A DNA stretch of 56,730 nt from a virus (taxonomy: Duplodnaviria > Caudoviricetes), in the IMG/VR virus record IMGVR_UViG_3300022752_000084, positions 1-56,730 of that record, one strand, 5' to 3'. The notes under the pieces are model-generated. The model saw only the letters and a program-made list of their open reading frames with translations, had not been told where the DNA came from and searched no databases. This document shows, in pieces, positions 4,600-40,690 of the stretch (position 1 is its first letter; each line of letters begins with the position of its first letter). A program made the position numbers and the translations under genes.

Positions 4600-4764
4600 G
4601 TGGCCGACAATGTAACCACGCGGCAATACAAAATTGAATTAGTTATCGTTGTTAATGCAGATAAAGCTAGCCCTTTAGTGTGGTTATCTAACTGCATCTA
4701 TGAGAACATCGACTTAAGCAACGGTGAAGACCTTAAATCATTCAACATGGAGGAACTCGCATGA
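4600..4764 (+). CDS. small hypothetical protein, 54 aa, GTG start
   Basis: Manual translation; TAAACT -10 at 4570. Confidence 0.5.
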   Translation: MADNVTTRQYKIELVIVVNADKASPLVWLSNCIYENIDLSNGEDLKSFNMEELA

Positions 4765-4771
4765 ATTGACA

Positions 4772-4819
4772 CTAAATCCTCGCTCGCTTCGCTCACTGCG
4801 GGCCGCCGCATACACTAAC
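4772..4819 (+). repeat. intergenic GC hairpin repeat, copy 2
   Basis: Near-identical to 3304-3351; TTGACA at 4766 and TACACT at 4811. Confidence 0.95.
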
Positions 4820-4850
4820 TCAACACTCACCCAATCTCATTATTATTCTG

Positions 4851-5084
4851 ATGAACACCTTTTTTGATAAAATCCCTTTCACTGCATTTTCTGCAATCCT
4901 CATAGGTTCAGCTCTAGGTATTGGCATCACAGGTTTGCTCCAAAATCAAATTAATAAACACACTGAACGTACTTGCAACGGCACAATCATCACAATCCGC
5001 ACAGTACCCACGACCTTAAAACATTGCCTACCGTTAAAACAACCTCGTCACTTAATAACTGCGGGGCGCATTTCAACACTGTAA
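4851..5084 (+). CDS. small membrane protein
   Basis: N-terminal hydrophobic helix FSAILIGSALGIGITGLL. Confidence 0.65.
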   Translation: MNTFFDKIPFTAFSAILIGSALGIGITGLLQNQINKHTERTCNGTIITIRTVPTTLKHCLPLKQPRHLITAGRISTL

Positions 5085-5097
5085 CTAACTCAAATCC

Positions 5098-5658
5098 ATG
5101 GTAAACGACGCCCTTCGCTATAACAATCCCGAACTGCGGGCTGCTGTTAAAGAACGCCTAAGTTGTGATCCTACTAAACCTAGTGGCTTAGTATGGAAAC
5201 TACCTGTGAATAACGGTAAGATGAAGGTCGGCCAGATGGCTGGCAGTTTAGATGTTACATGCGGCATATATTACATATCAATTAACAACAAGACATATAA
5301 AGCTCATAATCTCGTTTTAATCCTTCACGACGTTATATTTGGAGAGGGTGAAACAGGTGATCACATTGATGGCAACAAGTTAAATAACTCTATTGACAAT
5401 CTGCGTCTTGTTAATCAGAAGAAACAAATTTATAGAAACAGACACCGCAACAAAATCTTATACGCTTACACTTCGTGGGATAAAGTATTAGAGAAATATA
5501 AATCTAGCTATTGCGATCCAAGCACATGGCAGTTCTTTTTTGTAGGATACTTTGCAGACGCTTACGATGCGCATACAGCTGCTTGCGATCACATGCAACA
5601 ACACAACCCTCAAATACTTTGTAAGCGTCAACCTCCCTTCTCTCTATCTCAACCATGA
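5098..5658 (+). CDS. HNH homing endonuclease with AP2-like C-terminus
   Basis: YKAHNLV...DHIDGNKLNNSIDNLR motif intact; GYF...AYDAH tail. Confidence 0.85.
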   Translation: MVNDALRYNNPELRAAVKERLSCDPTKPSGLVWKLPVNNGKMKVGQMAGSLDVTCGIYYISINNKTYKAHNLVLILHDVIFGEGETGDHIDGNKLNNSIDNLRLVNQKKQIYRNRHRNKILYAYTSWDKVLEKYKSSYCDPSTWQFFFVGYFADAYDAHTAACDHMQQHNPQILCKRQPPFSLSQP

Positions 5659-5903
5659 TTTACTCGATTGATGAATCTCAGATTGAACCTACAGGTGAAT
5701 CAACACACCTTCGCACATTATTAGTTGTAACCACGCCATGTAAGTTGCAGCGCGAAGTTAAGAAAACTTTAGGTTGGAAAGGGTGTCACATTCATGCAAC
5801 ACCCATAGATAACGGATTACGTTTATCAATGAAACGCATCCTTAGGTACGCAATAGTCAAAGAAGTGGAGAATCCACTATCACAGATCAATCAAGATCTA
5901 TGA
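5655..5903 (+). CDS. hypothetical protein
   Basis: ATGA overlap with the HNH gene. Confidence 0.6.
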   Translation: MIYSIDESQIEPTGESTHLRTLLVVTTPCKLQREVKKTLGWKGCHIHATPIDNGLRLSMKRILRYAIVKEVENPLSQINQDL

Positions 5904-6038
5904 CGAATCATTTCTTCATTCCGCCTTTCTTTGTGCCTGCTTTAGTACCAGCTTTGCCACCTTTAGAACCAGTGGCGCCTTTCATACCAGCCATGATGCA
6001 AAAATCAAACAACCTTAATTATAGGAAATTTTAGCCCT

Positions 6039-6395
6039 ATGAATCAATTTCCTTGCACAAGTTGCGGCCTCTGTTGTCGCATTGTTGGTCATCTTTTGCC
6101 CAACATTGATAAGATTAAAGACCCATTAAATAAACATTTAGTCAGCACATTTCCCTATAAAACTAATGACGGTGTATGCGAAATGCTGCAACCAGATAAC
6201 ACTTGCGCAGTGTATAACGACAGGCCCGACTTGTGCAACATAAACACTGTGGCAAAACTCCGAGGAATCACAAATCTAAATGAATATCATAAACTTAACG
6301 CTCAGATATGTAACAGCTGGATTCAATTAAGTAGATCAGATCCTTCCTACTTAATCGACTTAACACAATTTGACAATATGGGAGCCACGCTCTGA
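6039..6395 (+). CDS. YkgJ-family Cys-cluster (zinc/iron-chelating) protein
   Basis: CTSCGLCC...CEML...CAVYNDRPDLC. Confidence 0.85.
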   Translation: MNQFPCTSCGLCCRIVGHLLPNIDKIKDPLNKHLVSTFPYKTNDGVCEMLQPDNTCAVYNDRPDLCNINTVAKLRGITNLNEYHKLNAQICNSWIQLSRSDPSYLIDLTQFDNMGATL

Positions 6396-6408
6396 TATTA
6401 TTACCATG

Positions 6409-6434
6409 TCCTCGCTCGCTTCGCTCACTGCGGG
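6409..6434 (+). repeat. intergenic GC hairpin repeat, copy 3 (26-nt core)
   Basis: TCCTCGCTCGCTTCGCTCACTGCGGG identical to copies 1 and 2. Confidence 0.95.
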
Positions 6435-6464
6435 GGCGTCGCACACATCTCCTGTAACTTTCTG

Positions 6465-6770
6465 ATGGATACTGAACTCACAGGCTACGAAGTAATTTCG
6501 ATCAGTTTCGATGTTTACGATGATGCTTTAACCCATGATGATCAAGCAAATTTAAGTAACAGTTTGTTAGCTCGATACAGAGGTAGCACTTGGATTTCTA
6601 ACTCTTTAGAAACAGTTGTTGATGCTATTACTAAAGAATCTGGTTATACAATTAGCTCTCTATCAATTAAATCTATCAACTTCGAGGAACTTAATGATGC
6701 CGAAGAAGAGGACTGCGATCAAGACAGCGCCCGTGTTTCGCTGTTTCAAAGTAACAATAACAACCCCTAA
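6465..6770 (+). CDS. small acidic protein, likely paralog of 3374-3592
   Basis: Sequence pattern similarity; also lies directly after a hairpin repeat. Confidence 0.7.
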   Translation: MDTELTGYEVISISFDVYDDALTHDDQANLSNSLLARYRGSTWISNSLETVVDAITKESGYTISSLSIKSINFEELNDAEEEDCDQDSARVSLFQSNNNNP

Positions 6771-6945
6771 AAAAACTTTTGAAGATTACGTACGCACACC
6801 ATTAAATTGGAGTCCAGCAAAAACTACAGCCCGTTATCTTTCAACTCATAAATATACAAATGTAGTTGATATTGTAGCCACGCGGCTACCTTTGAACTTT
6901 GTCATTACCTCACTTATTTCTTTTATCCATTACGAGGACTATTAA
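6697..6945 (+). CDS. hypothetical basic protein
   Basis: In-frame ATG at 6697 (MPKKRTAIK). Confidence 0.5.
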   Translation: MPKKRTAIKTAPVFRCFKVTITTPKKTFEDYVRTPLNWSPAKTTARYLSTHKYTNVVDIVATRLPLNFVITSLISFIHYEDY

Positions 6946-6946
6946 C

Positions 6947-7129
6947 ATGCGTTACCGAATTCGCGTATTTGTCGAAAGTAACAAAGGAGAACGTAAATGT
7001 AACACAATTGTCAGAGTTTTCTTCCAACAGAAAGATTTAGATTCTTATGTTGCGGGGTTTGCTGATGGTAGTGCAGTTGCTGTTGACGGAGTTGTTTTAG
7101 GCTCAAAAATTACACCCATGGAAAGTTAA
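6947..7129 (+). CDS. hypothetical protein
   Basis: ATG at 6947 with GAGG upstream. Confidence 0.6.
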   Translation: MRYRIRVFVESNKGERKCNTIVRVFFQQKDLDSYVAGFADGSAVAVDGVVLGSKITPMES

Positions 7130-7266
7130 GTTACTTATTATTGATTAGAGATAAATAACTTTCTGAGAGCAGGTGCAAATCATGGTAAACTTCTATTAAG
7201 TAGAAAAAGTTTTAATAAATAATGATGTTGGGGATGCTATATCCCTATAACATTAAATAAACCGCA

Positions 7267-7398
7267 ATGGATTACATGAAACTGTTAAATGTATTTGGTA
7301 GAACTTACTGGACATTAGGATTAATTACTTGGTTTTTCACAACCAGTGATCATGCTCTCCTATTATCCCTGATAGGTTTCTTCCTCATGTGCCTTTAA
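7267..7398 (+). CDS. small membrane peptide, 43 aa
   Basis: Manual translation; two short hydrophobic segments. Confidence 0.45.
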   Translation: MDYMKLLNVFGRTYWTLGLITWFFTTSDHALLLSLIGFFLMCL

Positions 7399-7410
7399 CT
7401 AGATTACCTG

Positions 7411-7439
7411 TTGACAAGAGGCTCTCGCTTAGCTATCTT
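7411..7439 (+). promoter_or_regulatory. sigma70-type promoter
   Basis: TTGACA-17 nt-TATCTT upstream of 7503. Confidence 0.75.
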
Positions 7440-7502
7440 GTTTACAGGCGGCACCGGCCTATTTAACGTGGCGCACCTCTTCCTCTATCCTATCAAAATC
7501 AC

Positions 7503-7928
7503 ATGGACACACCTTCCTTTCGCGATCTAGTGGCAGTTGGGCGCACCGCTGCCGAGTGCTGGAATGAATTCGATATAGCGCAGATGCACTGCGAGCAAGC
7601 GTTTGGCACACCCTTCAATGCAGCCAAAGGCATCCTCAACACAGATATAAATGTGGCTGAGGCTCGCGGAGTTGATCTAGCTCCTTTCCAAGGCCCTGAA
7701 TCGTCCTTTAAGTTTCCTGATCTTAGTGCGCATATAGTTGTGCGGGTTACCAGAAAACCCACGGGGCACAAAAACATCGATAAGATCAATGCCAAAATCG
7801 AGAAGCTGGAGCTCCAGCTAAAGGCTGCAAAAATTGAACGGAAAAGTTTGATTGAGCAGTTGGTTATTACCGGTGCTGTAGATCAGGTAACCGACAATAT
7901 CGGCCTAGCTTTCACGAGGCTCAAATAA
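7503..7928 (+). CDS. hypothetical protein with coiled coil
   Basis: 141-aa ORF behind a canonical promoter. Confidence 0.8.
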   Translation: MDTPSFRDLVAVGRTAAECWNEFDIAQMHCEQAFGTPFNAAKGILNTDINVAEARGVDLAPFQGPESSFKFPDLSAHIVVRVTRKPTGHKNIDKINAKIEKLELQLKAAKIERKSLIEQLVITGAVDQVTDNIGLAFTRLK

Positions 7929-8083
7929 TGTTGAAAGTCACATCTTTTCTGCTGCTCACTCTCTTGTCTGCAGTTATCACCTGCGCATCGATGGGTTACG
8001 ACCCGTTGGAGCCTAACCGCGAAAGCTCCCAGCACCTCAAAGGATTCTGTAAAGATCCTAAATTCTATGGCCCTGGTTGTTAA
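7928..8083 (+). CDS. small signal-peptide-bearing protein, 51 aa
   Basis: TAATG coupling; MLKVTSFLLLTLLSAVITCASMG... Confidence 0.5.
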   Translation: MLKVTSFLLLTLLSAVITCASMGYDPLEPNRESSQHLKGFCKDPKFYGPGC

Positions 8084-8100
8084 TCCCAATAAACTTGCCA

Positions 8101-8130
8101 AAGCGTCTGCGGAAGGCGCTTCTTTTTATT
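8101..8130 (+). terminator. intrinsic terminator
   Basis: AAGCGTCT-GCGGA-AGGCGCTT followed by CTTTTTATT. Confidence 0.65.
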
Positions 8131-8159
8131 CCCCCTACAAATTTCTTTAAGTTTTTGAA

Positions 8160-9359
8160 ATGAACTCTTATCTTCTTTCTTGCTCAATTTCGGCGAACGT
8201 CAGACAATCAATTCAAATCAAATTTGATGATTTGAAATTGCCAGCTTCAGTTATCACGACGTTGGAACGACAAAACACTGTAAGCCTTCGACCAAATCTA
8301 TCTAACGCTCTTAAGGGAGAGTTAGATGATCTCCGTGTTTTACAGCGCGAATTGTACGACAACTATTGTTTACATTTTGGAGACACACATTTTGTAACAG
8401 CAAATTATTTTGATGGTGCGAATGATATTATTGCGAAAATTCGCGCACAAGCGGGAATTGCTAACGAAAAACTATACAAAATATGGGAACAAGAGTTTTC
8501 TAAGTGGAATCAAACAGTTGAAGATTTTCTTCGACCTCTGTTTCCTACAGACGAAGAATATAAACTTGCATGTGATGCTTACATGAGAGTTTTCCCGACT
8601 CAAGAAGAATACAGAAACCCAATTCGAGTTTTTGTTGTGGGTCCACTGCCGATTAGTTTAGAAGCCGTCTCAACACCTATTGAAGGCGACTCTTTTGATT
8701 CTGTATTAGCACATAGTAATTACATTAATACTAAAGAAGTACTTGATGCTGCTCACGCCAGTGCAGCTGATAGAGCTTTACAAATTAGTGCAGAACTTCT
8801 AGATGATTTAGATACACGAACTGTTACTAAGATTGGTCGGCAACAAACTGGCGGGGACAAGAAACGAGGTTCGTGGGAGATAACAGCATCGAAGCTCAAA
8901 TTAATTAGTGATTCAGTTCCTGGGTTTGAACATCTTTCCGAGTTAGCTGAAAAACTACTGCTTGCTGGTGCTGCAATTCAATCTTCTAACCGTACAGAAC
9001 GAGACCAAGGTGCAGTTACATTTCAAGAATTGCAAACAGAAATTCGTACAGAATTAGAATCTATTGTATCCACGCGGGACAAAACTAAAGGTTTGGAGAT
9101 GTTGCAGCAATCCTTGGCGCTTTCAAATACTTACAAGTCTTTATGTGACCGTATAAAGAAAGTTGAGAATTCGAACGCTCTAAACTTGTTAATTGCTGAA
9201 TCAAACATTGAACAGGATATTTATCGTCAACGCTCCAAACAGTTACATAAACTTATTTCACAAAGGAGGGAGTTGATTGGAGCTGCAGGAGAAAATCTCG
9301 ATACACTTATTTCAACAGTGGCTACCGCCGCTGAGGATTTTGAAACCCCTGATTTCTAA
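8160..9359 (+). CDS. DUF3150-like helical protein
   Basis: N-terminal pattern (L..LR..QRELY...C..FG..HFV...I..I.....L...WE.EF..W) resembles DUF3150; lies upstream of an AAA/VWA pair. Confidence 0.5.
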   Translation: MNSYLLSCSISANVRQSIQIKFDDLKLPASVITTLERQNTVSLRPNLSNALKGELDDLRVLQRELYDNYCLHFGDTHFVTANYFDGANDIIAKIRAQAGIANEKLYKIWEQEFSKWNQTVEDFLRPLFPTDEEYKLACDAYMRVFPTQEEYRNPIRVFVVGPLPISLEAVSTPIEGDSFDSVLAHSNYINTKEVLDAAHASAADRALQISAELLDDLDTRTVTKIGRQQTGGDKKRGSWEITASKLKLISDSVPGFEHLSELAEKLLLAGAAIQSSNRTERDQGAVTFQELQTEIRTELESIVSTRDKTKGLEMLQQSLALSNTYKSLCDRIKKVENSNALNLLIAESNIEQDIYRQRSKQLHKLISQRRELIGAAGENLDTLISTVATAAEDFETPDF

Positions 9360-9589
9360 TGAGTAGAACTCGTTACGCCCTCTGTTCAACAGAGGGTTAT
9401 CTTTCTGATATTGAAAATTACGTTAGCGATCCTGAAGAAGCTGTTACTTTCAGCTGCTTTGATGTCGCTGTTCAAAAACTCAATACTTTACAACCGTTAT
9501 TAAAAAACAGTTGTCGAGTTACTGAGGTACGCATTCCTTTTCCCCTTACAAAACCTTTTAGACTCGATGGCTACTCGAATAAGCACTAA
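9359..9589 (+). CDS. hypothetical protein
   Basis: TAATG coupling. Confidence 0.7.
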   Translation: MSRTRYALCSTEGYLSDIENYVSDPEEAVTFSCFDVAVQKLNTLQPLLKNSCRVTEVRIPFPLTKPFRLDGYSNKH

Positions 9590-10265
9590 GTTCTTTCAAA
9601 CAATAGATTTGAAGCTTCCGTTAGGTGTTACATCACCTACCACTGTTGATCTATACTATTCTAAACGCGCCAACACCTTAGGTGAATTTTTTATTAAACC
9701 TTTAGTTATTGTTTATGCCGATGGCTCCACGGTGGCGACAGAACTCTTCTCACGTTTTAGCTTTGCTTGCCCTCAAGACGCAATTGATGACTTACTGCAG
9801 TTTATAGAAGTGAACATCCCTACTAAACAAGTTACATTTAACGCTTATCGAAACGATGAAGAATTTAAATTTCCTATTCTCGCTAGCCAACTAAATAGTA
9901 TTTTTGAACCAGAGATTTTACAGCGTTCTTTAAATTATAAGAAATATTATTACGGTAAAGACGAAGTGACAGGCTATTGGTACTCTAAAAATTCTACAAC
10001 ACACTCTCTGAGTTTCGCTCCTTTTTATAAAGAAGAATCAATCCCTTCTACATTTGTTCCTACAGATGAAGTTAAGGACCGTATGTTTATGAACAAAATG
10101 TCAAAACTGCATGAAGCATATCATGAAAAGTTGTTAGAGATATTGCACAAATATGAGCTTGAGTGGACAATGACTTACAATCAAGTTTATAACGATCATC
10201 TTTCTTTTACTGATAGCTCGAATTTTGGCGACATTCAAGAGATTTTAAATAATTACAAACAATGA
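9567..10265 (+). CDS. hypothetical protein
   Basis: 232-aa ORF. Confidence 0.75.
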   Translation: MATRISTKFFQTIDLKLPLGVTSPTTVDLYYSKRANTLGEFFIKPLVIVYADGSTVATELFSRFSFACPQDAIDDLLQFIEVNIPTKQVTFNAYRNDEEFKFPILASQLNSIFEPEILQRSLNYKKYYYGKDEVTGYWYSKNSTTHSLSFAPFYKEESIPSTFVPTDEVKDRMFMNKMSKLHEAYHEKLLEILHKYELEWTMTYNQVYNDHLSFTDSSNFGDIQEILNNYKQ

Positions 10266-10266
10266 A

Positions 10267-10301
10267 CCTCCGCCCGGAGGCCGCTCACCAACTGCTATAA
10301 T
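10267..10301 (+). promoter_or_regulatory. extended -10 promoter with upstream hairpin
   Basis: CCTCCG-CC-CGGAGG hairpin, then TG-C-TATAAT (10293-10301); CATCA repeats in the leader. Confidence 0.7.
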
Positions 10302-10330
10302 CTACATCACATCACATCACATCATTCATC

Positions 10331-11521
10331 ATGAACGACACCCTCTTTGCCAAGCTTCAAAACTTTCGTGGTTCCCTCAACTCCTCATCACTCGAACGTG
10401 AGCATGTAATTGACGGCCTTCTCGCAACATTACTATCACAACAAAATGCTTTCCTCCTCGGAGCACCAGGAACCGGCAAATCTGATTTAGTGCGCACCAT
10501 CTGCAATGGTATTTCTGGTGCCAACTATTTTGGTTACTTACTCACACCCACGACGGATCCTTCGGAAATCTTTGGACCAGTCGCTGTAAGCAAACTATTA
10601 AATGACGAATATACCCGTGATGTTCAAGGGTATTTACCTGACGCACACATTGCTTTTACAGACGAACTATTTCGTGGTTCATCGGCAATTTTAAACTCAC
10701 TACTTACCCTGTTAAATGAACGAACTTTTAATAACGGCAAGGAAGTTATAAACACTCCGATTCAATCGATTGTTGCAGCAACAAACAGTTGGCCTGACGA
10801 AGAATCCTTGCAAGCATTTGCAGATAGATTTCTATTTCGACCAACAGTTGAATTCTTAAAAAAGCCTGCGTCTAAACGTTTATTAGATTCGTGGGCTGTG
10901 GGTAATGAAGAAAGACCAAAAGTTGGTGTTCACCTTACATTGCCAGAGCTTAAAGCCCTTCAACAGGAAGCTAAAAACATAAAAGTTTCTGAAGAGTTCT
11001 TAGATAAATTTGTGGAGTTATGGGAAATGTTGGCCGCGAGGGCAATCGTAATCAGTGATCGCCGTCGTGTTCAAATCCTCAAGTTTCTTAAAGCTTGGGC
11101 TGTTGTGCAGGGTGATGAAGAGCTTTATCCCGAACACATGCACAACTCCATGATTAACATTGTTTATCAAACTCAAGAGGATCAAGAAACTATTGCGGAA
11201 GTCTTAGAGCACGTTGTACCGACAGCAAATCGAATGTTTGCTGATGCAAAACGAGCTGCTGCGGGGATTATGACAGAATATCATGTTTGCTCTACTAAAC
11301 AAAAATCTAAACAAGGTATTGCTGAGCTTAACGAATTCGTCGGCAACCTACGGAAATATCATAAAGATATGCAAACCGTAAAAAATAAAGTTGCAGAAAT
11401 TTTGGACACTTCTAAATTTAGAATGAATATCCTAGACAGAACGCAAGGCGTAAAGCTAGAACAACAACTGCAAAACTATTTAGATACGTTAGCTATTGCC
11501 ATTTCAGACTTCTCTAAGTAA
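10331..11521 (+). CDS. MoxR/RavA-like AAA+ ATPase
   Basis: Walker A GAPGTGKS, Walker B AFTDELFR, LNSLLTLLNER, AATN, DRF. Confidence 0.92.
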   Translation: MNDTLFAKLQNFRGSLNSSSLEREHVIDGLLATLLSQQNAFLLGAPGTGKSDLVRTICNGISGANYFGYLLTPTTDPSEIFGPVAVSKLLNDEYTRDVQGYLPDAHIAFTDELFRGSSAILNSLLTLLNERTFNNGKEVINTPIQSIVAATNSWPDEESLQAFADRFLFRPTVEFLKKPASKRLLDSWAVGNEERPKVGVHLTLPELKALQQEAKNIKVSEEFLDKFVELWEMLAARAIVISDRRRVQILKFLKAWAVVQGDEELYPEHMHNSMINIVYQTQEDQETIAEVLEHVVPTANRMFADAKRAAAGIMTEYHVCSTKQKSKQGIAELNEFVGNLRKYHKDMQTVKNKVAEILDTSKFRMNILDRTQGVKLEQQLQNYLDTLAIAISDFSK

Positions 11522-11545
11522 AATAAAGCGCATCTAAACAATTGT

Positions 11546-32475: not shown

Positions 32476-32503
32476 TAGGTGGGCCTAATCTCAAGCCCAC
32501 CTA
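32476..32503. terminator. hairpin between convergent genes
   Basis: TAGGTGGGC-10 nt-GCCCACCTA. Confidence 0.7.
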
Positions 32504-32513
32504 AGCCCGATTT

Positions 32514-33200: not shown

Positions 33201-33204
33201 AATT

Positions 33205-33366: not shown

Positions 33367-33367
33367 A

Positions 33368-33499: not shown

Positions 33500-34029
33500 T
33501 TTACTACCTTCTTTGCGCGAGCCAAGTTCATAAGGCTATCAGCCATATTATAACTTTGCACCATCTTGGTGTCGTTCATCTGCTGGGCATTAAGGAAATA
33601 TTGTTTGTCGCCTAATAGACCGACTTGCAGAGCCTTGCGAGCACTAGGAGTATTGTCGGTTATAGATTGTATATATTCCTGCTGGCTCATATCGTCCGCA
33701 CTATCTTTCAGTGGGATTTGCTTTTGATTGTAACCCGCCACACCGGTTAATTCGGTGCTTTTCTTAATGTTGCCTTCACTGTACTCAACAGGCCCCACGG
33801 GTTGCCGCATGTAGATCCCGCGATCATGCGCTGCTTGAGCCGATACCCGAGATAAGCTATCGAGCTCCATAGCCCGACGTAAACCTATCTCGGCTGGTTG
33901 GTTCTTGCCTCGTAGACCCAATGGAAGGAGATTTAAACCACCGATCGGTTTCATTTCGGGTGTAACACGATCACCGTTTGGCTTTGGAATGATTGCCATA
34001 GTCGAGACTTTGACGGGACCGTCGTACAC
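33496..34029 (-). CDS. hypothetical late protein
   Basis: 177-aa ORF; true start may be the internal ATG (MAIIPK). Confidence 0.7.
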   Translation of the reverse strand: MYDGPVKVSTMAIIPKPNGDRVTPEMKPIGGLNLLPLGLRGKNQPAEIGLRRAMELDSLSRVSAQAAHDRGIYMRQPVGPVEYSEGNIKKSTELTGVAGYNQKQIPLKDSADDMSQQEYIQSITDNTPSARKALQVGLLGDKQYFLNAQQMNDTKMVQSYNMADSLMNLARAKKVVK

Positions 34030-34046
34030 TTCTAAGTTTATCTTAG

Positions 34047-34271
34047 CTAACGATTATCTGCGCGATTCGTTGATCGAGAAATAACTCTTAAATTATCGTT
34101 TTCTCGATTATGGGGATTGTGATCTTTATGATCTACATCCTTGCCATCGCCTTTATGAACACGGCCTTCTTTTTCTAAGTAACGACGAGATTTATTTCGT
34201 GCGGATCTACGTGCTATTTCCGCATCACTGCTTTGGAACTTGCGGTACTCGTCTTTATAATCGCGGGGCAT
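34047..34271 (-). CDS. small HNH protein
   Basis: RDYKDEY...GDGKDVDHKDHNP.N....NLRV.SRSTNR. Confidence 0.8.
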   Translation of the reverse strand: MPRDYKDEYRKFQSSDAEIARRSARNKSRRYLEKEGRVHKGDGKDVDHKDHNPHNRENDNLRVISRSTNRADNR

Positions 34272-34294
34272 AGAGTAAATGACTAGCTTGGTTT

Positions 34295-34324
34295 AAGCTT
34301 AGCCACGCGGATCAGCAGTCGATG
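34295..34324 (-). repeat. conserved downstream arm of fibre cassette B
   Basis: AAGCTTAGCCACGCGGATCAGCAGTCGATG, 29/30 identical to arms A and C; retains IDC* codons. Confidence 0.9.
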
Positions 34325-34325
34325 A

Positions 34326-36527
34326 TTATAAAGTCGCCATCATAAACATTAGAAGTTCTTCATATCGAATGCCGTAGCGATCTCCAGCAGGTTTTAATTC
34401 AATACCCTCCTCATCGTATTCGGCTTCCCATTGGTCATAACAAACAATGCCATAGCGGAAAGGATCAAGCTGTTCCTCCTCAAAAATTTCCATAACTTCT
34501 TGAGTAAGTACACCTATATGTATTCGCGCATTTTCGCCTTTCAACAAAACAGCATCTTTAAACAAAAACTTTTTAATTATTCTTTTAATTTTTTTAGCTA
34601 CTCTTTTTTCTGCTTCATTTAATTCTTCAATGTTTTGTTTTTCGCGTTTATCAGATGTATTAATGGTGCCAGTTGCCGCGTAAACGGTACTCCAGCGATA
34701 AGCTGAATCCCCTAATTTTGCAACATTATCAGCGCCAGGCAAAAGATAATTATACTTAAGGTAATATATGTCTCGTGATCCCGAAGAATCTTGAAAAGTA
34801 AACCGACGGGTATTGTCATAAATAGTAAATACACAACCATTATTGGCATCGTTTGTATTTGTAATAATGCTAATTTTAAGAGTTCCCGCTGTGGATATTT
34901 TTAATCCTGCCACGTTGGATGAAAAATGGTCAATTATAAGATGTGTTTGATCATTTGTAACAGTAGAATACGCAGAAGAATCTCCTACAACTACATTTAC
35001 GCCAGTGTTACTATAAGTATGTAAAGTATTTCCTAAGATTTGATTACTAACAGTTAAATTACCTAAAATATTTTGAGAACCAAGGCTTTGGCTTCCTTTT
35101 TGATAAAAATTAGCATAATCAATACTTGTATTAGCTAACGCCGTTGCGTCTGGAGTGCCAATAGCAAGTACCCCTGAAGGAGGTGTATAACTCAAATAAC
35201 CTTCAATATAAGACAACGCAGGGTTATATCCTATCCCGTAATTATCTCTAATAGCCGCTCCAATTCCCCCAGCAATTAAAATAGTGTCATAATTTCCTTC
35301 AAACCAGTTATTATTAATAAAAGAACTTTCTCCGTCTAATCTAATTGCTCTGCCTTTATTATTGTTTTCAAAAACACAGTTAGAAATAAACCACGTCTGT
35401 GTTCCACTAAGATCTAACGCTTCACACTCGTTTCGGTTTATAGCTGTTGATTTACCAACGCTAAAGTGGCATGCAGTAATTGCAAAGCTAGTGCCAGTTC
35501 TCATAGCACCCGTAGTCTTACTATAAGCTAAACCTTTATTAGATACATATTGAATATCGCAATATTCAACGCAACACGATATGCAATCATCAAACTGTAA
35601 AGCAATCCCCGCCCCAACATCAGTGGCACCCGGCCTAGCTAAACCTCCTATTGAACATTGACAAACCAAACAACGATCTGTTCCTTCAATCCATAATTGC
35701 GTAACATTAACAAAATTGGCAAATGTGTATATAGCAGAAGGCTGATACAACTTGAGTGCAAGACCTGCTATTTGAGAGCGATTTTGACCTTTATAAACAA
35801 CAACTTTTTTGCTAGTTCCTTGAAAGGAAGCCGCCTTACCATAAATGCCTATGCCAGTTTCAGCTCCTCCTCCAGTATTATTTCCAAAAATACTTAAACT
35901 TTTACCTCCTCCTCCTCCGTAACTTGCCCCAGAAGTGTTCCAATCAACAGTATCAGAAACAAGAATTTTGCCAATAATTAATAAGGGCAAACTAGAATTT
36001 ACTGCGGCAACAGCAGCATTTTTTAATCTAGTATGGTTATTGCCATCATCAGTCAAATCTCCAGGAATCCCAAAATCTGCTGTGCTGATAAAATCTTTCA
36101 GCTTACTATCAACAGTTCTAGTAGCGGCCCCAGTACCAGCTTGCAAGAAACTAAGTTTAGTTGCATTAATAGCTCCACTTATATTGACATCCGCATCAAT
36201 GATCGTACCGCTAGCAATCATTGTGCTAGTTACAGTTTCAACATCACCGACAGTTACGACATTATACCCGTTTCTACTTAACGTACCTGATACAACTACA
36301 CCTGATGCTGCAAATAACTGTCCGGTCATGTAGCCACCGGAAATTGGCACCTTATTTGATGCAGATACTAATCCCGCGTTACCCGACGCTAGTGCAATAT
36401 TTGCTAGGACTAATGCAGCATTACCCGAAGCCTGTGCTGTTGGATCCGTCGCTGGTCCAATAGTATCCCCAGGAGGAAGAGTACTAAAAGCACCACTAAC
36501 AAGAACTAAAGGAGTTTGAAGTGCCAT
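34326..36527 (-). CDS. tail fibre / tailspike B with peptidase S74 intramolecular chaperone
   Basis: Shared anchor; beta-helix; YRWSTVYAATGTINTSDKREK...HIGV.TQEV...YGIRYEEL. Confidence 0.9.
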   Translation of the reverse strand: MALQTPLVLVSGAFSTLPPGDTIGPATDPTAQASGNAALVLANIALASGNAGLVSASNKVPISGGYMTGQLFAASGVVVSGTLSRNGYNVVTVGDVETVTSTMIASGTIIDADVNISGAINATKLSFLQAGTGAATRTVDSKLKDFISTADFGIPGDLTDDGNNHTRLKNAAVAAVNSSLPLLIIGKILVSDTVDWNTSGASYGGGGGKSLSIFGNNTGGGAETGIGIYGKAASFQGTSKKVVVYKGQNRSQIAGLALKLYQPSAIYTFANFVNVTQLWIEGTDRCLVCQCSIGGLARPGATDVGAGIALQFDDCISCCVEYCDIQYVSNKGLAYSKTTGAMRTGTSFAITACHFSVGKSTAINRNECEALDLSGTQTWFISNCVFENNNKGRAIRLDGESSFINNNWFEGNYDTILIAGGIGAAIRDNYGIGYNPALSYIEGYLSYTPPSGVLAIGTPDATALANTSIDYANFYQKGSQSLGSQNILGNLTVSNQILGNTLHTYSNTGVNVVVGDSSAYSTVTNDQTHLIIDHFSSNVAGLKISTAGTLKISIITNTNDANNGCVFTIYDNTRRFTFQDSSGSRDIYYLKYNYLLPGADNVAKLGDSAYRWSTVYAATGTINTSDKREKQNIEELNEAEKRVAKKIKRIIKKFLFKDAVLLKGENARIHIGVLTQEVMEIFEEEQLDPFRYGIVCYDQWEAEYDEEGIELKPAGDRYGIRYEELLMFMMATL

Positions 36528-36619
36528 TATTTATCTCCGTGTATGCCAGACATAGTTTCTAAGACCGGCAAGACTTGATTCCCTAAGTTTAGCTGGTTTT
36601 TGCAGTTTAAGCAAACACT
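36525..36619 (-). promoter_or_regulatory. duplicated promoter/leader of fibre cassette B
   Basis: TTGCTT-17 nt-TAAACT; homologous to 19463-19557. Confidence 0.85.
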
Positions 36620-36649
36620 CTGCATAATCTCCACATGGGAACAGATTCC

Positions 36650-37891
36650 TTACTTTTTCGCCTTAATAAACCAACCACTCCCGGCACCTTCTACTTTCCA
36701 TCGAGGGCCAAGATTTTTCTTCGAGTACACTAATTGCTTACCATTTGAACTCAAATAATTTCCATTAACCAGATCTAAATCCCCATTCGGGTCGTTGACA
36801 ATATATGCGTCATTTTTTTCATTTCTACCCACAATAATAATCCAATGACCTCCACCAACGGGAGCTCCCACTGGGCCATGATGCAAAATTCCAATCGGAA
36901 CAGGAATGCCTGCAACTAACTGCGAATCAATATCGGACCAATCGCCATTTTGCCTAAACGTTGCTTCAACCCCATAATGAGCTAAAGCTTCAATTTGAGC
37001 CCCGGCATCCGTCGTATCCCCATATTTAAATACGGTAACTATGTACTCATCATCTGATTTAATACTATTAGGTTTCAAATACTTCAACAACATCCCACAC
37101 GAGCTTGAAAAACAAGTTCGAAGTGGGTCGCGCATATTATCCCTCTGCGAGTAATAAGGAACATTCAAAATTAACTTGGAACTGTGTTGCACCTGTGTAG
37201 GAATGCTTTTTGGAGCTGCATCATTAATTATTTTCCAATGTGACGGGTAGAACCACCAAGTTTGGTCTGGTTGAGCCTCTAAAACAATTTTATAATCCGA
37301 TTCGCCAGGAACAATAGTTATGGAATTCCATTCATGTGCCACGCCCTTGGGCACAAAAAGCTTTTCTTCTGGTGTTAAGTCATTTGCTTGCGCCGGTTTG
37401 CGTTTTAACCAAGTATCCTGCTGAGCTAAAATACTGTGCGCCAAAACAGCATTTTTAACACTTGTTAAAAACAAAGCTTGCTCATCTTTACGACGATTAA
37501 GAAGACCTTGAACAACCACGCCGTCGGCTTTACTCCACCTCGGAAATTCAGCCGCAACTATGGTTTTATCCGTCTTATCATTAAGCAACTTCAATAATGT
37601 AGATTCTTTAAACGCGCCCAACCCGACATTGTAGCTAAAGCTAACAAGGGCATCGAACTGATTTTGGTTGACGGGAACTTTTAGCGCCTCGGTAACCCCA
37701 TTTTCAAAAAAACTTACATCTTTACGCAGCATTTCCTCAGCCTCTGCCGCCGAAATTACCTTACCTGGCGTTACATCCGAGCCCGTATGTCCATAACCTA
37801 TGGTCCAAACCCCAGCAATATCCTGATATGCTGTAAGTTCGCACCCTTCAAATTTCTTAATCAGCGTTAATCCGGCTGAAGATATTTTCAT
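36650..37891 (-). CDS. endolysin: GH24 lysozyme plus C39-like peptidase
   Basis: [39 protein letters not shown]; VPYYSQRD...TCFSSSC...GHW...NDP. Confidence 0.92.
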
Positions 37892-37894
37892 GGC

Positions 37895-38329
37895 TCAATA
37901 CACGTCAACTCCAACCCGATATTCACAACCACTGCGGCCTTTTAGTGCTACATACATATAATGAGCACCAGATGCGTTAATTGTAGTTTTAGTTACCGCG
38001 TTATTGCGTGAGCTTAATTTAGAAGGTTTAGCTTCCATAACCAAACTGCCGGCACTATTTAAGATCGCAACATTACCAACACTGTTTATATTCCGAATGT
38101 TTACTTGTAAGATCCCAGTCGCATTCAATGTCAGTGGATAATAATCGGATATTGAATAAAATCCGTCTGCAACATATTCCCTAGATGTTTGAGTATTCAC
38201 AACCACGCCGCTGTTACTTACCACTCGGCGCTGGTCGAAATGTGTCGAAGTGTCACGCTGGCGTCCGCCTGTAGATACACCACTAGCAAGGACTACATCC
38301 AGTTCTAAATTTTTAGTAAACTGCGACAT
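37895..38329 (-). CDS. putative virion structural protein
   Basis: Start reassigned to MSQFTK; TAGAAT -10 at 38355-38360; beta-rich. Confidence 0.6.
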   Translation of the reverse strand: MSQFTKNLELDVVLASGVSTGGRQRDTSTHFDQRRVVSNSGVVVNTQTSREYVADGFYSISDYYPLTLNATGILQVNIRNINSVGNVAILNSAGSLVMEAKPSKLSSRNNAVTKTTINASGAHYMYVALKGRSGCEYRVGVDVY

Positions 38330-38430
38330 TTGGCAGACAGGTCTAACTTTCCATATTCTACTCGGTATTCGTAAGCATGGCTCTTTTAATTTTTTAGTTA
38401 GACTGACGTAGAGATCTACCCGGCAAAACA

Positions 38431-38685
38431 ATGTTTGTCACTATATTAACAGGTGTTGGCGGTGCTATTGCCCTGTTTACCTGGCTTCATGAGCAGCGTC
38501 AACAGGTTTTGAATGCGCGTTTTGAAAATATAAAAAAGCGGCTTTCTTATATCGAAAGAAAACTTGAAGAATTACCCATAAATTTTGTTTTAAAATCCGA
38601 TTTAAATGACGAACTAAATGATATTAGAACTTGGCTCCGTTCGATAAACGACAAGCTAGACCAGCTTATTCTTAACAAAAGATAA
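38431..38685 (+). CDS. membrane-anchored coiled-coil protein (holin-like)
   Basis: N-terminal TM helix plus heptads; near the endolysin. Confidence 0.55.
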   Translation: MFVTILTGVGGAIALFTWLHEQRQQVLNARFENIKKRLSYIERKLEELPINFVLKSDLNDELNDIRTWLRSINDKLDQLILNKR

Positions 38686-38690
38686 AATAC

Positions 38691-39359
38691 TTAGGATATT
38701 TGATTAATTGTAACAATTAATGAAGGGATGTCAGGTCTTGTTGGATTTGTTAAACCGCTGTAAGCGGCAATCTTGACATTTACATCTGCAGAAGACCAAG
38801 CTAACTGGATATTATCTCCTTCACCCGCATTAACAAAGTAATTCCACGCGGCAACGCTTTTTGCGTTATTTCCTTGTAAAGTTATCCGTGTATTTGTATA
38901 CGGAACATTTTGATTATTTTTAACAACCCAAATATCTATTTCGTCTGTTCCCCCATCTGTTTTAATTAGTTGAGCAGAAAACTGAACATCATAAACTCCA
39001 GATAAAGGTACAACCATCCGTGAACCAGAAACCAGAGTAACTCCGTCAGTAGAAGACACGGAATTAAGTGTCATTATATTTACACCAGTTGCTGTTACAT
39101 TATTTTGAAATGTTGTATCAAAAAAAGCGCCATATTGGTGCGAGGTTTGTACAGCCTGCGCAAAAACTGGTAGGGTGCTCATGGAGTTCACCACACCGCT
39201 CAACGTTATTTGCTTAGGTTGGGCGTCAGCTTGAATTTCATTCGTATCTAGAACTAAAAAAACATCGTTTTCCCCAATATTTGCAGTAGAAACTAGGTCA
39301 GTTAGACGCGAAACGGAACGACTAAAATCACGAGCATCGTCTAAATTCCTGCGTACCAT
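38691..39359 (-). CDS. putative tail/virion protein with C1q-like beta domain
   Basis: YGAFFDTT.Q...GVYDVQFSAQL...AAWNYFV...PSLIVTINQI. Confidence 0.7.
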   Translation of the reverse strand: MVRRNLDDARDFSRSVSRLTDLVSTANIGENDVFLVLDTNEIQADAQPKQITLSGVVNSMSTLPVFAQAVQTSHQYGAFFDTTFQNNVTATGVNIMTLNSVSSTDGVTLVSGSRMVVPLSGVYDVQFSAQLIKTDGGTDEIDIWVVKNNQNVPYTNTRITLQGNNAKSVAAWNYFVNAGEGDNIQLAWSSADVNVKIAAYSGLTNPTRPDIPSLIVTINQIS

Positions 39360-39378
39360 GAATTTTAAAAATTTAATC

Positions 39379-39789
39379 TTATTCTACTTCAGTTTCGCCT
39401 TCTGGCGAAGCAGACAATTTTAACGGTTTTTTACACAATTCTTCGTAATTTCGTGCAGCAATACTTTGTTCATGATTATAACTAAGCCAATTCCATATAT
39501 TGCTTTCTCGTTCCTCGGTCCAAAAAAATTGTTGGCGGAACCATGTAAACCATTCTTCGTCGCTTTTTTGTAAGTTGCAGGTTGGGCAACACGCTAATAA
39601 ATTTCCTCGTTTTGTTGGGCCGCCACGCGCTCGGGGAACTATGTGATCCAGGGTGTAGGCGCGATCAGATCCGCAATACGCGCAAGCGTCTCCCCAAGCT
39701 TCAAGTATATCTTTACGAAATCTTTTACGTGCATTCCTACGTTGTAAACAAGAAAGATTAAAAACTAAATCATCTTCGGAGGCGGTCAA
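39379..39789 (-). CDS. HNH endonuclease (McrA-like)
   Basis: CAYCG...TLDHIVPRARGG...NLLACC..CN..KS. Confidence 0.9.
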   Translation of the reverse strand: MTASEDDLVFNLSCLQRRNARKRFRKDILEAWGDACAYCGSDRAYTLDHIVPRARGGPTKRGNLLACCPTCNLQKSDEEWFTWFRQQFFWTEERESNIWNWLSYNHEQSIAARNYEELCKKPLKLSASPEGETEVE

Positions 39790-39846
39790 ACCAACATTCC
39801 GACTAACCTATTCTACTTATAAAAAAGTACCAGTTGACTCTTTAAT

Positions 39847-40044
39847 TCAATAAAATTTCTTTTTGATCTCTTCAATTTTGTCATCTTCGGTTCTGAAATT
39901 TTTAAGAATACGCACTCCTTTTATAAAGAGCTGCGCTACGCTATTCTGACGTAACTTGCTAAGTCCGATCACTTCTGAACTAATAAATAATAGAAAGAAG
40001 AATAGAGCTTCCCACGAGATTTTAAACCCAAGAATCGTTAACAT
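39847..40044 (-). CDS. small membrane protein (possible holin)
   Basis: Hydrophobic N-terminus, SEVIG...NSVAQL, basic tail. Confidence 0.6.
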   Translation of the reverse strand: MLTILGFKISWEALFFFLLFISSEVIGLSKLRQNSVAQLFIKGVRILKNFRTEDDKIEEIKKKFY

Positions 40045-40137
40045 AGTTGTGAGATAACTACGTCTAGTCTAGCTTAATTTTTTAATAGAGGATTACTTCC
40101 TTTCCTTGAGCCCTTTCATCGGGCCATGCCTTGGGTC

Positions 40138-40653
40138 GCTAAAGATCATTATCGCACGCATTGAAGCCGCTCTAGTACGTGTTGCTGAACACAAATCGCT
40201 GGTTTGCTTCGCATTTCTCTCATGGCCCCAGTAAAGGTGACTACTCGTGATTGGGAAGTTGTTCAAGGGCGCGGCAGATAGTGTCAAGTTCGCTGATATT
40301 CTACTTTTCTTTCCCGAAGTTAAAGGGAGTTATAACTCCCGTATTGACCTTCGTTGCGGGAGTTATAAGTACTGCAAAGAAGAAATGATAACAAAAATAG
40401 AGGCATTTATCAATGCTTACCGGAATTAGTGCAATATTGGGAAGGTGACTACTCGGATTCCCGATAGTTGGCGTTTATCGAGAAAACAAGTTCGTCGGCA
40501 ATGTCGAGCACATCTTGACGGATGGCATCAGCACCAACTATCCGGTAATTCCAGATAGTTGCTAAAGCTCATTATCGCACGCATTAAAGCCGTTCTTGTA
40601 CGCATTGCTGAACACAAACCAATACCTGCCAGACCCAGTAACGAAGGTGACTA
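40138..40653 (-). repeat. mosaic repeat region with gene-end remnants
   Basis: AAGGTGACTA at 40234, 40442 and 40644; 58-nt duplication 40138-40195 / 40561-40618 (52/58); palindromes at 40330-40368 and 40536-40561. Confidence 0.8.
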
Positions 40654-40655
40654 TT

Positions 40656-40690
40656 AAGCTTAACCACGCGGATCAGCAGTCGATGGCGTC
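40656..40690 (-). repeat. conserved downstream arm of fibre cassette C
   Basis: 35 nt identical to 17178-17212; includes the chaperone stop codon. Confidence 0.9.

Follow-up and report, generated by a model that had tools for sequence, protein, structure and literature searches.

The 56,730-nucleotide window analysed here (the whole stretch of DNA, part of the genome of an uncultured lake phage) carries a short, strongly strand-polarised motif. The hexamer CCACGC occurs 36 times on the + strand and three times on the - strand over the whole window (binomial p 3.6e-8; 7.4e-5 after Bonferroni correction over 2047 hexamer pairs), making it the most skewed of all hexamers present. We favour, at about even chances, the reading that its copies are preferred sites for priming the lagging strand of a genome that is replicated in one direction, and that they are read by the phage's AEP primase-helicase.

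Extent and polarity of the motif

The initial annotation described the longer word CCACGCG. All 15 + strand positions listed for it are exact and its single - strand copy was confirmed, although at 53731-53737 rather than 53730 (recount 15:1); the 11 + strand copies of the form CCACGCGG were likewise borne out (11:1), as was the + bias of the shorter CCACG (75:27 in the window). As the unit, however, CCACGCG is too narrow: an order-5 Markov model expects 11.25 copies compared with the 15 seen, and the 7-mer skew is not significant once corrected over 4228 7-mer pairs. The related CCACGG is also skewed (21:6 in the window); the other 16 single-mismatch variants of CCACGC show no comparable skew, the largest being that of CCACAC (13:6). 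Position 8 is informative, with G in 25 of the 36 CCACGC sites, and the refined 8-mer CCACG-S-N-G gives 38:2 in the window. The figure for CCACG may be compared to those for CCACA (32:37), CCACC (38:24) and CCACT (53:43).

Together the 36 CCACGC and 38 CCACG-S-N-G sites form a + strand field at 255..54623. The CCACGC sites start at 1599, 2620, 4616, 5731, 6385, 6878, 9070, 12839, 14032, 14466, 17186, 19581, 20790, 22483, 23345, 24160, 24694, 25345, 26418, 27394, 29637, 31404, 32756, 33300, 34303, 37339, 37516, 38203, 38844, 39623, 40664, 48320, 50118, 51463, 53898 and 54618; the first and last CCACG-S-N-G sites are at 255 and 53898. The three - strand CCACGC copies lie at 2064..2069, 29309..29314 and within 53731..53737, the last being the core of the sole - strand CCACGCG. 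The limits first assigned to the field, 4616-40671, were too narrow, since + CCACGC sites span 1599 to 54618, and there is no switch of polarity after 41 kb, five + CCACGC sites lying beyond that point. In all 12 5-kb windows CCACGS is more frequent on the + strand. The polarity does hold in both gene orientations, as originally stated, with 17 CCACGC sites in 26.6 kb of + strand genes and 14 in 25.2 kb of - strand genes; five of the 36 are intergenic.

The sites are evenly spaced. Gaps between + strand CCACGS sites have coefficients of variation (CV) of 0.78, 0.65, 0.70 and 0.64 in the window and three complete relatives, compared with about 1.0 for random placement, and equally low values were reached by 0/111, 0/259 and 0/138 control motifs in the three complete relatives and by 4/317 in the window. 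Mean CCACGS spacing is 0.76-1.0 kb, and the density of the 8-mer is about one copy in 1.5 kb for the window and about one in 1.3 kb for relatives.

Enrichment relative to expectation

For CCACGCG, Markov models of orders 0-3 expect 1.5-1.6 + strand and 1.0-1.3 - strand copies against the 15:1 found, and dinucleotide shuffles yield 2.59 +/- 1.56 on both strands summed (maximum 7; none of 100 reaches 16). The 36 + strand copies of CCACGC compare with 7.6-10.3 expected under Markov orders 0-3, a 3.5-4.7-fold enrichment, and with 13.1 +/- 2.6 (maximum 21) in 500 synonymous-codon shuffles, while the 38 copies of CCACGSNG, set against 9.8 +/- 1.9, are attained in 0/500. On the - strand the three CCACGC copies are near expectation, both under Markov models (4.2-5.8) and in shuffles (4.8 +/- 1.9, with 130/500 equally low). 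The signal is therefore a gain on the + strand, not a depletion on the - strand, and codon bias is rejected as its cause.

It might still be supposed that the skew arises without any function, from base composition, codon usage or repeated sequence. C and A are in excess along the entire + strand, giving an expected skew of 1.4-1.5-fold (7.64 vs 5.25), and the order-4 Markov expectation for CCACGC is as high as 25.9, although only because 5-mer sub-words carry the same signal. Three 32-nt direct repeats, all on the + strand, do carry the motif in all three fibre-cassette arms, as the initial annotation noted: at 17176..17207 (holding CCACGCGG, downstream of the tail-spike gene 17447-19465 (-)), at 34293..34324 (immediately downstream of the fibre gene 34326-36527 (-)) and at 40654..40685 (at the 3' end of the ORF 40673-40939 (-), below the spike gene 40989-42992 (-)). 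Three of the 36 CCACGC sites thus fall in one repeat family and are not independent. Such a by-product is nevertheless very improbable, being contradicted by the codon-preserving shuffles, by the skew in both gene orientations, which code different amino acids, by the other 16 one-mismatch variants and by a flat reversed-word control.

Conservation in related phages

The motif tracks the phage lineage, and the strand that carries it is always the one coding for the primase. On that strand the 8-mer is in excess in 40 of 41 non-redundant IMG/VR relative loci, the exception being a tie (pooled counts 512:96, control 67:42; GC 0.36-0.52), and in all 13 loci of a sister clade with primase N-terminal identity of about 46-55% (77:15, control 8:18). 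Relatives represented by whole records give 57:22, 54:15, 54:23, 53:19 and 64:25, the reversed-word control giving 12-22 on each strand. Among CCACN words in the 41 relatives only CCACG is + skewed (1104:580), the ratios for CCACA, CCACC and CCACT being 0.50-0.77. The skew is kept only when position 6 is S and position 8 is G (CCACGC.G 328:68, CCACGG.G 184:28); other bases at position 8 give ratios of 1.15-2.5. The hexamer alone is less skewed in relatives, at about 2.5:1, inside a general A-rich strand asymmetry. Individual positions turn over, with 70/429 homologous hexamers kept at position compared with 7% for control hexamers. An orientation-dependent signal distinct from codon bias, as originally proposed, and its selection at the DNA level are supported by the codon shuffles, the equal density in both gene orientations and this polarity in relatives.

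The primase-helicase and a priming-site reading

The proposed reader is a 918-residue primase-helicase encoded at 29123..31879 (+), comprising an AEP catalytic domain, a helical domain, D5_N and an SF3 helicase. Residues 384-877 match phrog_1156 and other primase families, with domain matches to D5_N, DUF5906 and Pox_D5. Structure comparison places an AEP (prim-pol) catalytic domain at residues ~8-218 (29144..29776, +), which superimposes on the RepB' catalytic domain (Z 9.6, rmsd 3.7, 144 aligned) and on the cyanophage S-2L PrimPol (Z 9.6, rmsd 3.8, 150 aligned); its D87 and D89 are invariant among 16 relatives. The helical domain that follows (residues 218-372; 29774..30238, +; pLDDT 89.4) is conserved, with 32 columns invariant among the lake relatives and those of the sister clade. 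Of 48,161 chains compared with its predicted structure, those ranked 2, 4 and 5 are helix-bundle domains (HBD) of pRN1 (3m1m, Z 5.0; 6gt7, Z 4.8) and NrS-1 (6a9w, Z 4.5), tied with unrelated helical proteins. The Z values are low, and the domain is a candidate HBD, the module by which the pRN1 and NrS-1 primases recognise their template. A family A DNA polymerase with 3'-5' exonuclease lies on the same strand as the motif (21528..23423, +). Several HNH endonucleases are also encoded in the window.

Three signals had been suggested initially without a choice among them. A primase site fits best, given the AEP-fold primase-helicase, the GTGG ending of the motif complement and the even 0.8-1 kb spacing; a Chi-like site remains a rival, and a packaging or ejection cue is unsupported. 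The complement on the - strand reads 5'-C-N-S-C-G-T-G-G-3'. Its 3' GTGG would be the recognition element, itself not copied, and the primer would begin opposite the next base 5' of GTGG on the template, so that its first four bases, 5'-G-S-N-G-3', would equal + strand positions 5-8 of CCAC|GSNG; the S and G required at positions 6 and 8 fit a purine-initiated, GC-rich primer start. Sites on only one strand genome-wide would make the - strand the lagging-strand template everywhere, implying unidirectional replication, by a rolling circle or one-way theta mode, with forks that would travel the same way as the late and structural genes of the - strand are read. Selection may maintain one good site per 0.8-1 kb, approximately an Okazaki-fragment length, while exact positions turn over. 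The lagging-strand template is usually G-rich, having leading-strand sequence; here + strand GC skew is negative in 25 of 28 2-kb windows, the GTGG-bearing strand being the G-rich one. In C. difficile, the strand bias of the primase trinucleotide reportedly mirrors GC skew (PMC5204125).

Some observations sit less easily with priming, among them the weaker skew in relatives and the low Z values of the HBD matches noted above. Bare GTGG is already common on both strands of the window (CCAC 199:131), which makes selection for an 8-nt site hard to explain, and the skews from which replication mode and direction were inferred are weak in relatives. Phage T7, whose primase sites are known, failed as a positive control, none of its sites being strand-polarised (GGGTC 39:55, TGGTC 79:62, GTGTC 43:42); a sequence-specific primase thus need not imprint its own genome. 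The NrS-1 genome has a modest GTGG skew (112:69; GTGGA 48:18), confounded by gene orientation.

Alternative explanations

Unlikely, yet deserving attention, is that 5'-CNSCGTGG-3' or its complement is a Chi-like site for host RecBCD or AddAB, slowing the degradation of rolling-circle concatemers from their single free end or aiding restart of broken forks, roles in which one orientation alone would be useful. Like known Chi sites, this 8-nt motif has a polarity, is enriched and is rich in G on one strand. Each of the three fibre cassettes has it in its conserved 3' arm, as would suit a recombination hotspot. It has GTGG in common with E. coli GCTGGTGG and GCGTG in common with the GCGCGTG of lactococci and streptococci, although it is identical to none of the Chi sequences in Table 3 of PMC5959072. 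Conservation over two phage clades differing in GC content (0.36-0.52) points instead to a phage-encoded reader. No Chi-like excess is seen in the only candidate host lineage, with 38 copies against 62 of the control in the MAG holding the one genome_contigs relative and motif-to-control ratios of 0.5-2.9 in 121 Verrucomicrobiota genomes, although the link to that host is weak and the comparison therefore not decisive. The sites are also evenly spaced, which is not a known property of Chi. Another phage-encoded one-strand or oriented DNA-binding function unrelated to priming (for example a KOPS/SRS-like translocase orienting signal, a site where ssDNA binding nucleates or a mark for telling the strands apart) would need only a directional reader to account for polarity, enrichment, lineage conservation and spacing. 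We consider this doubtful: no FtsK/SpoIIIE-like or other candidate reader was found among 89 ORFs scanned with PHROGs, 42 of them also with Pfam, and the agreement between GTGG and the sites of AEP primases would have to be coincidental.

Localized single-strand interruptions, described for phages T5, tf and the phiKMV group (PMC3517423), raise the slim chance that the motif marks sites of a phage-encoded nickase acting on one virion DNA strand. Strand-exclusive motifs have precedent there: the 14 nicks of tf lie at 5'-TACT/RTGMC-3' and only in the top strand, T5 sites follow the consensus 5'-R/GCGCRGG-3' and phiKMV-like phages are nicked in the non-coding strand (PMC3517423). The HNH endonucleases encoded in the window would also be in favour. 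The nick motifs described in that source are, however, longer, nearly invariant and few (14 in tf, four major in T5), compared with 38-57 graded sites per 57 kb here; site positions in the LUZ24 group are alike among relatives (PMC3517423), unlike the turnover noted above, and a strand cut each kilobase would be unusual. Finally, Type III and Type ISP restriction enzymes are known to cut only with two inversely oriented sites, so that sites in one orientation give immunity, and the EcoP15I pattern of T7 was reproduced on recomputation (CAGCAG, 0 top and 36 bottom). Avoidance of such an enzyme predicts loss of one orientation and is contradicted by the + strand enrichment; with the - strand not significantly depleted in the window and above control in relatives (96 vs 42-67), and even spacing left without explanation, it is highly improbable.

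Comparison with known systems

As in T7, (nearly) all copies of an asymmetric hexamer share one orientation, the figure of 36 being common to both by coincidence; T7 has lost one orientation, whereas this phage has gained one, with the other at expectation. Like the nick motifs described for tf, T5 and the phiKMV group, the motif keeps to a single strand of the phage genome, but those are at least 7 nt long, while the motif here is short and graded, has 38-57 copies and turns over in position. It resembles Chi (E. coli GCTGGTGG; L. lactis and streptococci GCGCGTG; P. syringae GCTGGCGC) in being short, G-rich, orientation-dependent and over-represented, and differs in tracking phage lineage rather than a known host, in its even spacing and in its density, P. 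syringae having one Chi per ~3 kb (PMC5959072).

The closest cultured relative, Synechococcus phage S-EIV1, has in common a D5-type primase (30% identity over 47% of the query), PolA, ThyX, a Dps-like protein and an M23 peptidase, and its TerL and portal-like protein match complete relatives at 43-54%. Unlike this phage, it has no CCACG skew (15:12; 8-mer 6:9).

Among AEP primases, pRN1 ORF904 requires template 5'-GTG-3' and starts its primer immediately 5' of it (PMC2034472), while the most efficient sites described for the NrS-1 primase are 5'-GTGG-3' and 5'-GTGA-3', with synthesis from the first base upstream and site binding credited to the HBD (PMC8718748). The motif complement ends in the GTGG of NrS-1 and includes the GTG of pRN1, and its conserved bases just 5' of GTGG on the template coincide with the primer start described for those enzymes. 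Our literature search turned up no description of pRN1/NrS-1-type primases leaving such an imprint on a genome, and, unlike their sites, the signal here spans 8 nt, extends over the whole genome on one strand, is evenly spaced and is selected at synonymous sites. The phage enzyme is about 10% identical to theirs over aligned parts, and shares with ORF904 the layout of AEP catalytic domain, helical domain and SF3/D5 helicase.

A strand-polarised word in the window

The analysis confirmed the presence of an evenly spaced 8-nt word, lying on one strand, selected at synonymous sites and conserved across an extensive lineage of uncultured phages. In the window it takes the form of a short, asymmetric, orientation-dependent sequence, near-confined to the primase-coding (plus) strand, with plus:minus counts of 38:2 for the refined word CCACG-S-N-G (CCACGSNG) and 36:3 for the hexamer CCACGC. 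The initial annotation had drawn attention to a plus-polarised CCACGCG. Automated search found all 15 of its plus strand positions to be exact, while the minus strand copy, placed at 53730, actually occupies 53731-53737, one base away. Taking both strands, CCACGCG was observed 16 times against 2.59 ± 1.56 in dinucleotide-preserving shuffles, none of 100 reaching 16, and CCACGCGG is distributed 11:1 (plus:minus). The polarity of the 7-mer therefore stands, but not its status as the real unit, a place taken by the hexamer CCACGC: the 7-mer's own 6-mer sub-words lead to an expectation of 11.25 copies compared with the 15 observed.

CCACGC shows the top skew among 2047 hexamer pairs (binomial p 3.6e-8; Bonferroni 7.4e-5), although three of its 36 plus strand sites fall within one 32-nt repeat family and are thus not independent. 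The suggested comparison with a Markov background upheld the skew: orders 0-3 predict 7.6-10.3 copies on the plus strand and 5.3-5.8 on the minus, so that the former is about four-fold enriched and the latter simply at expectation. The limits originally assigned to the field (4616..40671) proved too narrow, since plus strand CCACGC sites span 1599 to 54618, with five beyond 41 kb, and the switch of polarity past 41 kb that had been envisaged does not occur in the window. CCACGG is skewed likewise (21:6); the remaining 16 single-mismatch variants of CCACGC show no comparable skew in the window. A G occupies position 8 in 25 of the 36 CCACGC sites.

Tests against codon bias and composition

Sites were assigned to gene orientations with the help of 89 called ORFs, which together span 91% of the window. 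As the initial annotation had stated, the polarity is present in both, with 17 sites in 26.6 kb of plus strand genes, 14 in 25.2 kb of minus strand genes and five in intergenic DNA, and CCACGC ranks first among window hexamers when the same sign of skew is demanded in each orientation. Selection at synonymous sites was assessed through 500 shuffles in which synonymous codons were permuted within each gene, preserving the proteins and per-gene codon usage. These yielded 13.1 ± 2.6 plus strand copies of CCACGC (maximum 21) against the 36 observed, and 9.8 ± 1.9 of CCACGSNG against 38. The minus strand is ordinary by the same measure, its three copies of CCACGC comparing with 4.8 ± 1.9 and 130 of the 500 shuffles being equally low. 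An artefact of composition or codon usage is ruled out by the codon shuffles, the split by gene orientation, the mismatch variants and the flat control provided by the reversed word.

The phage and its relatives

The window encodes a family A DNA polymerase, a 918-aa D5/SF3-type primase-helicase (29123-31879, plus strand), an exonuclease, ThyX and a Dps-like protein, as well as a MoxR/VWA pair, several HNH endonucleases, an endolysin and three paralogous tail-fibre or spike genes. GenBank phages contain no near DNA match to the window and no tblastn match for its 499-aa ORF. Among cultured phages Synechococcus phage S-EIV1 comes closest: its gene set is similar, and its primase shows 30% identity across 47% of the query. 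In complete relatives, which measure 75-87 kb, homologues of TerL and portal are encoded on the minus strand; the window has neither and is consequently a partial genome, the record probably representing around two thirds of the whole. One complete relative, G005, bears a 127-bp terminal repeat. In S-EIV1, residues 1-200 (1-265 in the comparison with G003) and 531-846 of TerL (KJ410740.1 54080-56620) align with neighbouring or overlapping stretches of DNA in the complete relatives G002, G003 and G005, indicating an S-EIV1 insertion of roughly 270-330 residues missing from these three, which is possibly an intein.

The 20 source runs containing window DNA are all lake, freshwater or sediment metagenomes. 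Among features sought as hints of the host, tRNA genes are absent from the window, and HIP1 (GCGATCGC), which would hint at a cyanobacterial host, has 0 copies in both the window and S-EIV1. A single relative was encountered in binned genomes, as a contig within a Coraliomargarita metagenome-assembled genome (MAG), and this is the sole, weak link of Verrucomicrobiota to the phage.

Conservation of polarity, density and spacing

A relative of the primase N-terminus is encoded by 325 IMG/VR contigs, the best 80 of which were covered, and each locus was oriented with the primase on the plus strand. CCACGC counts are 585:208 over the first 49 loci. Split by gene orientation in the 33 loci that are 10 kb or longer, a set not de-duplicated but excluding the near-identical L001-L004, they are 316:149 in plus strand genes, 135:23 in minus strand genes and 32:11 between genes. 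Five whole records gave 57:22, 54:15, 54:23, 53:19 and 64:25 for the primase strand versus the other, with 12-22 copies of the reversed-word control on either strand. Across 41 de-duplicated loci (688 kb, GC 0.36-0.52) the hexamer stands at 548:223 (control 136:118) and CCACGSNG at 512:96 (control 67:42), the plus count of the latter exceeding the minus in 40 of the 41, with one tie. The same loci support the refined form of the word: CCACGC.G is distributed 328:68 and CCACGG.G 184:28, other bases at position 8 give ratios of 1.15-2.5, with A at position 7 the ratio is about 1.2, and CCACA, CCACC and CCACT show no plus skew in the relatives.

The polarity extends to a sister clade whose primase N-terminus is about 46-55% identical to that of the window and which takes in the Coraliomargarita MAG contig; here all 13 non-redundant loci show it (77:15, against 8:18 for the control). 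S-EIV1 lacks it (15:12; 8-mer 6:9). Within three complete relatives, plus strand CCACGS outnumbers minus in 16 of 18, 15 of 17 and 14 of 16 5-kb windows, the remainder being ties and never reversals. The motif is not the lone outlier in the relatives, where it ranks with several other strongly skewed words within a broader A-rich asymmetry of the same strand. At the level of single bases, A exceeds T on the primase-coding strand in nearly all 5-kb windows of G002, G003 and G005, irrespective of gene orientation, and in the window phage C exceeds G on that strand in 11 of 12, a genome-wide strand asymmetry independent of transcription.

Turnover was measured by projecting window sites onto the relatives via protein alignments. 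CCACGC is retained in 70 of 429 homologous hexamers (16%), compared with 7.0% for all hexamers, a low figure which means that position as such is not the conserved property: the density of the motif is conserved, its position mostly not. Plus strand CCACGS sites have a mean spacing of 0.76-1.0 kb and are more regular than random placement, for which the coefficient of variation of the gaps would be about 0.97-0.99; the observed values are 0.78 in the window and 0.65, 0.70 and 0.64 in three complete relatives. Of control motifs matched in abundance, 0/111, 0/259 and 0/138 were as regular in the relatives, and 4/317 in the window.

Other repeats and genes in the window

The paralogous tail-fibre or spike genes lie on the minus strand in three copies (17447-19465, 34326-36527 and 40989-42992). 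Their 5' parts have roughly 300 nt in common (19038-19337, 36070-36369 and 42496-42795; 85-87% identity), their 3' parts differing and containing pectate-lyase-like or S74 chaperone domains. The same 32-nt element closes each cassette (17176-17207, 34293-34324 and 40654-40685) and, among the sequences compared, belongs to this phage only, save for a copy with five mismatches in the near-identical L002. The arrangement resembles a modular system of receptor-binding cassettes, with recombination arms as its boundaries. In the early plus strand region a 59-nt direct repeat occurs at 3304-3362, 4772-4830 and 6404-6462 (95% and 61% identity to the reference copy); it has a GC-rich core (CTCGCTCGCTTCGCTCACTGCGGG...) and may be an early regulatory element. 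A MoxR-type AAA+ ATPase (PF20030, E 2.6e-56) adjoins a VWA-domain protein at 10331-13253. A GAGGA-type repeat run at 21253-21401 encodes a highly acidic Asp/Glu tract, which forms the end of the ORF at 21061-21447, just upstream of the DNA polymerase.

Fold of the primase-helicase

The first 420 residues of the primase-helicase were modelled from 16 relatives (pLDDT 78.8). Sequence search of this N-terminus against the PDB gave nothing meaningful (best E 0.45), and matches came from fold comparison alone: residues 8-218 resemble the archaeo-eukaryotic primase (AEP) fold of the RepB' catalytic domain (Z 9.6, rmsd 3.7, 144 aligned) and of cyanophage S-2L PrimPol (Z 9.6), with Foldseek E values for the AEP-domain matches of 5.8e-4 and 1.2e-3. 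Two Asp residues of the domain, D87 and D89, are invariant in the 16 relatives, and the Pfam families D5_N, DUF5906 and Pox_D5 are recognised downstream. On the evidence of the modelled fold, the phage encodes an AEP-type primase. The helical domain that follows, modelled alone (pLDDT 89.4), has 32 invariant columns across the lake and sister clades. Among 48,161 chains its fold ranks 2, 4 and 5 are helix-bundle domains (HBDs), from pRN1 (Z 5.0 and 4.8) and the NrS-1 primase-polymerase (Z 4.5), tied with unrelated helical proteins at Z below 8.

Possible function of the motif

A reader of the motif would need to act strand-specifically, or directionally, over the genome as a whole and to travel with the phage lineage, for which the primase-helicase would be the obvious candidate. 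We consider the chances about even that the motif is a priming signal for the phage's own AEP primase. With GTGG on the template, the bases to its 5' side would template a primer starting 5'-G-S-N-G, accounting both for the selection of G alone after CCAC, as a purine start, and for the information at positions 6 and 8. Under such priming the motif density would fit Okazaki-fragment length, which is typically comparable to the motif spacing. GC skew of the plus strand is negative in 25 of 28 2-kb windows, so that the strand carrying GTGG is the G-rich one, as expected of, though no more than consistent with, a lagging-strand template. Motif strand, composition and priming taken together would imply that replication runs one way, as a rolling circle or as unidirectional theta, with forks travelling in the direction of the minus strand late genes. 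More tentatively, and at somewhat short of an even chance, the lineage may inscribe its own Okazaki map, in the form of evenly spaced one-strand 8-nt starts (GTGG and the four bases that open the primer) read by the AEP primase-helicase. Were this so, genome sequence alone would reveal strictly unidirectional replication, the lagging strand and a rough fragment length. Literature searches turned up no earlier account of an imprint of this kind, and searches by motif string gave primer-sequence noise only.

Several observations count against priming or fail to provide a parallel. Even without the rest of the motif, GTGG is frequent on either strand (CCAC 199:131 in the window), and the GTGG skew of the NrS-1 genome is modest (112:69) and confounded by gene orientation. 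T7, a positive control with known primase sites, has no strand polarity in these (GGGTC 39:55, TGGTC 79:62, GTGTC 43:42).

A Chi-like recombination site would likewise be polar, enriched, 8 nt long and G-rich, and the motif has GTGG or GCGTG in common with known Chi sequences, yet it is identical to none of those compared. Its tracking of the phage lineage across two clades and the even spacing of its sites also make this explanation unlikely. The Coraliomargarita MAG, sole candidate host through a weak link, has 38 copies versus 62 of the control, and over 121 Verrucomicrobiota genomes the motif/control ratio is 0.5-2.9, with no excess above 2.9-fold, a scan that is not decisive because the host link, one binned contig, is weak. 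Strand-exclusive motifs also mark localized nicks in phages tf, T5 and the phiKMV group, where they are longer, few and positionally conserved (PMC3517423). Confinement to one strand is shared (38:2, 36:3), but the 38-57 graded sites here are not few, long and near-invariant, and their positions are poorly kept (70/429 against 7% for control hexamers), unlike the published description of tf and LUZ24; we regard a nick motif as improbable. Another oriented reader encoded by the phage is rather unlikely, and the remaining explanations together very improbable. Avoidance of one orientation, of the Type III or Type ISP kind, was rejected, as it predicts the purge of one orientation (compare T7 CAGCAG, 0:36) and not a four-fold gain of the other: the minus strand is not purged (3 versus 4.8 ± 1.9; 130 of 500 shuffles as low), the plus strand is enriched (36 versus 13.1), and the minus strand of the relatives lies above control.

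An evenly spaced one-strand 8-nt word across an uncultured lineage would offer a new handle on phage replication. As a priming signal it would assign a new AEP primase a specificity open to testing and make replication direction and fragment size readable from metagenomic contigs without a cultured host. As a Chi-like site it would yield the recognition sequence of the host's break-repair nuclease, and hence a tool for host prediction. On either reading it is a compact marker with which to orient and recognise contigs of the lineage.

Comparison with known systems

Polar genome-wide words are already familiar from bacteria in the form of Chi, KOPS and primase trinucleotides. For the last of these, strand bias has been noted in C. 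difficile (PMC5204125). Among the closest parallels are AEP-type systems. The pRN1 protein ORF904 requires 5'-GTG-3' on the template and begins its primer immediately 5' of it (PMC2034472). The phage NrS-1 study gives 5'-GTGG-3' and 5'-GTGA-3' as the most efficient sites, with synthesis from the first base upstream, and credits site binding to the HBD (PMC8718748). The complement of our motif, 5'-CNSC-GTGG-3', holds the core of both the pRN1 (GTG) and NrS-1 (GTGG) primase template sites.
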